A stretch of DNA of 62,925 bases, counting the filler, from Collodictyon triciliatum (taxonomy: Eukaryota): NCBI GenBank assembly GCA_043381765.1. It is 7 parts of 7 records of this genome, joined end to end, with 100 filler letters (N's around TTAATTAATTAA, not from the genome) between each part and the next. Parts side by side here need not be neighbours in the genome. Positions count along the whole stretch, not along the records: positions 7,476 to 11,315 come from JBHJMP010000093.1; 6 more parts are not named here. One strand, 5' to 3'. This document shows, piece by piece, positions 10,350 through 11,415 of the stretch. Below the pieces are notes generated by a model, which worked only from the letters and a program-made list of their open reading frames with translations, did not search any database and was not told where the DNA came from. Position 1 is the stretch's first letter. Each line of letters starts with the position of its first letter. Made by a program: the position numbers and the translations under genes.

Positions 10350-10892
10350 ATTGCGAGAGGCCGCTTCCTTCTTGATGGTTATAAAGGGCGGTGGGGATGG
10401 CTGTGAGGTACTTAAAAAATATGTTGATTTTCTAACCATTATTTTTTAAAAAAAGTTTTGTGGGAGTTTTCTCTGTGCTGAGGGTTTTTACTGATCCGTT
10501 GAGTTTTGTTGTTGTTGTTGTTGTTGTTCCTTTTACTTCAAGAACCCAAACCAGTCTAGATTGTAAGCAGAGTGGCATCCAACTCGGGTGGCAACTCTAG
10601 CGCAAGAACACGACACCAATACAGAGACAGGGATCGTCCTTGTGTTCTACACGCGAAGAAAGCTCAGGGACGTGCAGCCGACAGATCAATCGCCTTCCTT
10701 GAAAAGGCAAAGCTGTTGAATGATTATTTCTATTTATGGAATATATTATATTATTTCTATAATAAACATCAAAATAATTTTATAACTATTAATTGTGTGT
10801 ATAATTATCAAAATGTTATCAATTTTGCACAATACAAGTTATTAATCAATCGGCATGTGTTTCCTGTCAATATATATTATAGAGTCGGCGGG

Positions 10893-10937
10893 TGGCATAA
10901 CCTCGCTACACTTTGAATCGAATGAAGGAAAAAAAAA
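10893..10937 (+). mobile_element. Ultra-short poly(A)-tailed retroposon-like element, full-length copy
   Basis: TGGCATAACCTCGCTACACTTTGAATCGAATGAAGG+A9, flanked by TTATAGAGTCGGCGGG (10877-10892) and TTATGAAATCGGCGGG (10938-10953), 13/16 identical. Confidence 0.85.
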
Positions 10938-11415
10938 TTATGAAATCGGCGGGAAACTCGGTTATGCTTGTGGCAAACATTACCGAAACGGTAAATTTTC
11001 TGCAAGTATTCCAGTTAGAGAAATACTGCCACAAGTTTCTCCGCCAACTTCGATCGCAGCCGGTTTCTCAACACCCGCTCTGGAATAACAGATTACTTTG
11101 ATCGAGACTTCTGCTCGCAGGCGTTTTGCGGGGCACGTATCCCAGCACAAGAGTTGCTTCAAGGCGGCCTAGCAGGCTCTCGAATACATCGGCATGCAGT
11201 CTCTGCACATAAAATCGAAAAAGAAAAAAGAAAAAAGAAAAAAGAAAAAAGAAAAAAGAAAAAAGAAAAAAGAAAAAAGAAAAAAGAAAAAAGAAAAAAG
11301 AAAAAAGAAAAAAGANNNNNNNNNNNNNNNNNNNNNNNNNNNNNNNNNNNNNNNNNNNNTTAATTAATTAANNNNNNNNNNNNNNNNNNNNNNNNNNNNN
11401 NNNNNNNNNNNNNNN

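Follow-up and report, generated by a model that had tools for sequence, protein, structure and literature searches.

Short A-tailed repeats of Collodictyon triciliatum as probable, severely 5'-truncated copies of an L1-like LINE

The window, i.e., the whole 62,925-nt stretch of Collodictyon triciliatum DNA that was analyzed, is eukaryotic sequence with a G+C content of 36.6% and consists of seven small scaffolds. These are joined by N44-TTAATTAATTAA-N44 linkers, which carry stop codons in all six frames and occupy the following positions:

7376-7475, 11316-11415, 19717-19816, 30702-30801, 51697-51796 and 59120-59219: linkers

Microsatellites and homopolymer runs are very abundant throughout, and nearly all gaps, linkers and 100-N runs alike, are bordered by one of them. 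Poly-C runs of at least 20 nt are located at ~23215-23240, 23425-23455 and 60755-60783. DNA of the window recurs in freshwater and lake metagenome contigs with 0-4 differences per 151 nt.

The minus strand holds, at 4130-6211, an ORF of no fewer than 694 aa, which specifies KDM5 C-terminal helical, C5HC2 zinc-finger and PLU-1 domains. Its best named relatives share 27-41% identity over one third to 59% of the length, and this distance indicates that the protein collection covers the host lineage poorly. Further stop-free frames of 369-665 aa span 304-2301 (+), 54058-55167 (+), 56047-57180 (+) and 61007-62272 (-); no Pfam family scored above cut-off in any of the four, and some of these frames probably run through simple repeats. 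Contigs from public sequencing runs, which were compared with window positions 11500-15190, delineate an intron-rich gene on the plus strand (11638-14824), in which the contigs of run X1 reveal exons of ~30-270 nt separated by ten GT..AG introns (97-291 nt). Because of these ten joints, the X1 contigs are taken as spliced and cDNA-like. Introns of this gene hold three copies of the LINE tail described below, one antisense and two sense.

A 36-nt core is found with 0-1 mismatch at 10893-10928 (+), 12312-12347 (-) and 62836-62871 (-), each time followed by A8-9, against 0.00 occurrences expected from 100 shuffles. With one mismatch allowed, the 14 nt at the 3' end of the core occur eight times versus 0.05 expected, and none of the 100 shuffles reached eight. 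A blastn-short search located shorter copies anchored at the 3' end, at 32554, 14163, 22137, 22389 (-), 13105, 19561 and 20680; weak matches at 14206, 17394 and 11191 were left out of the copy count. The whole-window repeat search was swamped by microsatellites, and its sole addition, family D20, is the core itself. The window thus holds about ten copies on five of its seven scaffolds, in agreement with a previous sequence-only reading of this DNA, which had reported a recurrent A-tailed 36-nt core. Eight of the ten lie within 11.5 kb (10893-22409, scaffolds 2-4) and two in the remaining ~50 kb; AT-rich introns, the order of the scaffolds or chance may account for this clustering. The individual features, named according to the interpretation favored here, are as follows (TSD, target-site duplication):

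10877-10892, + strand: 5' TSD of copy 1, 14/17 match to the repeat after the tail, counting one extra base per side
10893-10937, + strand: copy 1, probable 5'-truncated LINE, last 36 nt of the 3' UTR with 1 mismatch, plus A9
10938-10953, + strand: 3' TSD of copy 1
12303-12347, - strand: probable 5'-truncated LINE copy, 36 nt followed by an additional G and A8
62827-62925, - strand: longer LINE copy running off the window end; A9 preceded by at least 90 nt of 3' UTR, TSD not readable
32554-32589, + strand: probable 5'-truncated copy, ~26-29 nt of core plus A7, within a degenerate CATACT microsatellite
14147-14231, + strand: probable truncated copy in tandem; copy at 14163-14190, ~19 nt of core plus A6
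22137-22155, + strand: probable truncated copy, 12 nt of core plus A7; perfect flanking repeat, 17/17 including ambiguous A's
13105-13125, + strand: probable truncated copy, ~13 nt, GGG variant, A8; perfect flanking repeat, 17/17 including ambiguous A's
19561-19583, + strand: probable truncated and diverged copy, GGGG variant, A5; weak TSD, score 4
22389-22409, - strand: core fragment, 21 nt with 1 mismatch; neither A tail nor TSD
20680-20696, + strand: core fragment, 17 nt; neither A tail nor TSD
12308-12313, 13113-13117, 19574-19578 and 22385-22391: G-run sites

All copies share the 3' end, and their 5' ends are graded: the truncated ones retain 36, 36, ~26, ~21, ~19, ~17, ~16, ~13 and ~12 nt, and the one at 62827 retains at least 90 nt up to the window edge. 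The A tails, present on eight of the ten copies, are short (A5-10), even where the flanking repeats are perfect. The GG preceding the tail varies in length (GGG at 12303 and 13105, GGGG at 19561, GGGGG at 22389), which suggests homopolymer slippage by the reverse transcriptase or in the genome. The copy at 12303 is antisense within intron 12292-12475 of the plus-strand gene (X1 GT..AG joint 12292>12475), and those at 14163 lie inside intron 14087-14379. The latter form a TSD-copy-TSD-copy-TSD array (14147-14231; period 41, 2.1 copies, 81% match) that is spanned by an X3 contig and may have arisen either by slippage or unequal exchange between TSDs or by a second hit at the same site.

Flanking repeats were scored as matches minus twice the mismatches, over lengths of 8-20 nt and with a slack of 3 nt either way. 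Six of the nine testable copies score at least 8 (range, 8-17), a value reached by 0.08% of 5000 control sites placed at random outside low-complexity regions (maximum, 10) and by none of 72 flank-swap pairs (maximum, 6). When low-complexity sites are kept, the proportion scoring at least 8 rises to 6.6%, inflated by microsatellites, hence the use of the filter. TSD-like flanks are therefore more frequent than in controls. The previous count of six copies bearing clear repeats stands; lengths span 12-18 nt, against the 16-18 bp given there, and only the repeats at 22137 and 13105 are perfect. Those of the 12303 copy (~12348-12365 and 12286-12303) match at 15/18 positions. The 32554 copy has a 17-nt repeat with 1 mismatch, which is less secure because the site is a degenerate (CATACT)n tract. 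The TSDs at 10893 and 12303 contain 3 mismatches each; by hand count, the two 36-nt copies accumulate 6 mismatches over 35 TSD positions versus 2 over 90 core positions, a contrast hard to square with neutral divergence of both since the insertion. At the start of the TSDs, the junctions are T-rich|A-rich (GTTT|AAAT, TTCT|AAAA, GGTT|ATAT, TTAT|TAAT, ATAT|ATTA, AATC|ATAT) and fit an APE-type nick. They loosely resemble the TT|AAAA preference of L1, whose endonuclease is described as preferring TTTT/AA and whose TSDs may hold substitutions, according to PMC2912911.

The identity of the core emerged when JGI metagenome contigs were scanned with 27 nt of it. The sole match was a 1157-nt freshwater-metagenome contig, designated L001. 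On the element strand, L001 comprises an open frame with a zf-RVT domain (PF13966; E = 1.5e-7, 32.4 bits, cut-off 27.5), a frame break and a stop, and a UTR of ~93 nt ending in the core and A10. The C-terminal zinc-binding motif of ORF2 is thus located directly upstream of the 3' UTR, and the core, continuous with both, is the last 36 nt of that UTR. Copy 1 (10893-10937, 45 nt) is 97.8% identical to the 3' end of L001, and 62827-62925 (-) is identical to it at 99 of 99 positions. More of the same LINE lies elsewhere in the window:

46185-46778, - strand: decayed ORF2 C-terminus piece of the same LINE; zf-RVT region with stop codons, without the 3' end

By blastn, 46185-46730 (-) aligns with the L001 ORF over 547 nt at 93.4% identity, and tblastn of L001 against the window returns 139 aa at 82%, placing the zf-RVT region at 46360-46773. 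This fragment is devoid of both ends, and a splice-acceptor-like ...ctctcag precedes its upstream edge; exonization or a deletion may be involved. The 99/99 match, together with the 93.4% ORF piece, indicates that the LINE belongs to this genome. Consequently, the three full-length copies of the sequence-only reading are reduced to two, those at 10893 and 12303, since the one at 62827 runs at least 54 nt further 5' as LINE 3' UTR. Its proposal of a ~45-nt non-autonomous retroposon with a 5' end of its own gives way to the core as the 3' terminus of a putatively L1-like LINE. A match to an already described element had been named there as grounds against that proposal, and the longer, ordinary kind of element found here essentially amounts to one.

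Of the ORF2 of this LINE, the part recovered is the C-terminus only, since L001 ends inside it and the window contributes 46185-46778; no reverse transcriptase or endonuclease domain of the element was seen. With the 202-aa ORF piece as query, an exhaustive HMMER search retrieved 14 proteins at E<=0.001: ten fragments of 72-309 aa and four full-length relatives of 1226-1275 aa, 29-38% identical over the shared C-terminal region. Exo_endo_phos and RVT_1 domains occur in all four of the latter, and zf-RVT in three. One relative, P0011, matches human LINE-1 ORF2p at E = 3.4e-57 versus ~1e-23 for R2 proteins. The parent would thus be an L1-like LINE of the L1/Tx1 group, an assignment that is indirect because the relatives with reverse transcriptase and endonuclease are only ~30% identical. 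Among longer proteins, a word-indexed search with the LINE ORF piece found no match, pattern scans of viral contigs and genome contigs were likewise negative, and a literature search with an 18-nt core piece retrieved no paper.

We therefore consider that the repeats are copies of an autonomous, L1-like LINE of this genome, severely truncated at the 5' end and dead on arrival, a reading to which we assign a probability of roughly 0.8. Target-primed reverse transcription, already invoked on first inspection, fits the A tails, the 5' truncation, the 12-18 bp TSDs and the junction composition. By analogy with established L1 biology, the LINE endonuclease would nick the T-rich|A-rich target, and the reverse transcriptase would then use the LINE RNA as template, priming at its A tail and proceeding from the 3' end. 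Synthesis or 5' joining would halt after 12-36 nt in most events here, and a nick in the second strand 12-18 bp away would give rise to the TSD. Graded 5' ends are in keeping with this scheme, because truncation would give such ends. The template was presumably the LINE RNA itself and not that of a parasite sharing its tail. The short copies have no promoter and are non-functional by-products.

The first alternative retains this mechanism and changes the template RNA: the short copies would derive from a non-autonomous element, for instance a SINE or a LINE derivative with deletions, that uses the LINE machinery and has the last ~47 nt in common with it. Many LINE/SINE pairs do share their 3' tails. 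The public-run contigs bear on this option in both directions. Loose ends 5' of the core start with the LINE UTR, in reverse complement, in 5 + 1 cases for X1, six for X2 and one for X3, among the rows listed; the X3 record is a 1007-nt contig whose first 30 loose letters follow the LINE UTR. In reverse complement, the loose-end consensus corresponds to the flank of the third copy (62872-62925), and a flank common to outside contigs implies that this copy is not bounded at TGGCAT. Beyond the first 11 nt, the X1 and X2 consensuses agree only at 0.6-0.7; the X2 consensus differs there from L001, and that of X1 does so in a short block. More than one parent sequence may thus share the tail. A tail-sharing element would account for consensuses that agree over 11 nt and then fall to 0.62-0.72 with departures from L001. 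Such low agreement may simply be due to copies truncated at different points, to subfamilies or to the presence of a related species in the runs. The summed word depth over the element bin (X1, 958; X2, 133; X3, 5.0; ~0-12 in other bins), very high in the spliced contigs of X1, would also favor this alternative, yet such depth is not a copy number; the raw-read run X6 contributed 1 read. No such element was seen, and L001, 62827-62925 and the 1007-nt X3 contig all follow the LINE UTR. We regard this alternative as unlikely. As for the insertions themselves, a 151-nt X2 metagenome contig bridges the filled site at 12303; no empty-site allele was seen with one DNA contig bridging 12303 and one bridging 14163.

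Slightly less likely still is a discrete ultrashort retroposon of 36 nt plus an A tail, derived from the LINE tail, with a defined RNA 5' end and mobilized in trans. The two longest truncated copies, at 10893 and 12303, are the only ones starting at TGGCAT, on the same nucleotide and with TSDs abutting the start, and two outside contigs break off 1-2 nt from the core start (X1 at 12346, X3 at 12345). In simulations, coincidence of the two ends at -36 has a P value of 0.17 under a uniform and 0.03 under a geometric model; the shared end is a weak oddity, suggestive and not significant. Among the rows listed, 13 contigs continue into the LINE UTR versus the 2 that break off at -34 to -36. The third full-length candidate is a LINE copy, 5' ends below 36 nt are graded, and the two 36-nt copies carry no common substitution distinguishing them from the LINE tail. 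The last 17 nt of the core could form a 5-bp hairpin beside the tail, which appears in the MFE structure and is absent from the centroid. A stable RNA structure 5' of -36 that would stop the reverse transcriptase was discarded as unsupported, since shuffled sequences fold just as well as the last 228 nt (z = -0.76). The putative retroposon also has no promoter and no likeness to tRNA or Rfam families.

Some features sit oddly with severe truncation of LINE copies. Besides the uniformly short tails and the TSDs of the 36-nt copies, more diverged than their cores, this holds for the retained lengths. Nine of the ten copies with a 3' end keep at most 36 nt, none in the window falls between 37 and 98 nt, and this extreme length spectrum, with its shared stop nucleotide, is not predicted by plain random truncation. 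A true discrete 5' end at -36, whether from a trans-mobilized 36-nt plus A-tail RNA or from a hard stop or template switch of the reverse transcriptase, seems improbable to us. If real, it would account for both the missing 37-98 nt copies and the uniformly short tails. In the first case, the RNA would come from UTR cleavage or internal initiation and be the shortest known retroposon; in the second, -36 would be a sequence-specific hard stop or template-switch point.

Finally, chance similarity or microsatellite/slippage repeats of a non-mobile nature could be suspected in a window so extraordinarily rich in microsatellites and homopolymer runs, with one copy duplicated in tandem and TSD-like scores at 6.6% of unfiltered control sites, and are ruled out by core matches of 3-8 observed versus 0.00-0.05 expected in shuffles and by TSDs that hold under filtered and flank-swap controls, the core being moreover continuous with a LINE ORF.

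The copies belong to the ordinary class of 5'-truncated LINE insertions and are not SINEs. No Pol III promoter-bearing head (tRNA, 7SL or 5S) accompanies the core, which is the end of a LINE UTR, and SINE identity was discarded. ARAGORN detected no tRNA gene in the window, and Rfam gave no match at gathering score in the window and none of relevance in L001. The earlier observation that Pol III boxes are missing is thus borne out, and their absence is expected of sequence from the 3' terminus of a LINE. As to a defined length with subfamily substitutions, two of the nine truncated copies in the window share the -36 end, with no private substitution. In stringent-type pairs such as eel UnaL2/UnaSINE1, the SINE has the 3' tail of the LINE in common with it, and a short 3' tail beside a repeat or A run can suffice for mobilization. 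The core resembles that pair in ending in a possible small hairpin; unlike the tail of UnaSINE1, it was not seen attached to an independent head or body. Platy-1 of New World monkeys, at ~100 bp, is presented in PMC4864456 as the shortest primate SINE. Like the copies studied here, Platy-1 is short, A-tailed and TSD-flanked, and it depends on L1. However, it is defined in its full length, has A/B boxes inherited from Alu and falls into subfamilies, whereas our copies have no promoter, no length class beyond the weak coincidence at -36, and direct continuity with a LINE UTR.

Mammalian L1 offers a close parallel, with its A tail, variable TSDs of ~10-18 bp, T-rich|A-rich nick and graded copies anchored at the 3' end. 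PMC2912911 describes most human L1 copies as severely 5'-truncated. The L1 parent specifies an ORF2 of the APE-EN, RT and C-terminal zinc motif type; here, APE-EN and RT are predicted from relatives only. Differences from L1 include far more extreme truncation (9/10 copies at or below 36 nt) with tails of A5-10, a C-terminal domain that matches Pfam zf-RVT, and an ORF ~30% identical to the nearest full-length relatives.

The conceptual gain from this assignment is small, as 5'-truncated LINE copies are textbook. Copies of 20-45 nt escape standard repeat masking, yet they litter introns, at about nine per ~60 kb here. Each carries AATAAA and is mistakable for a new mini-element or for regulatory motifs. 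If the extreme shortness proves to be genome-wide, this LINE would provide a natural case for the study of early abortion of target-primed reverse transcription.
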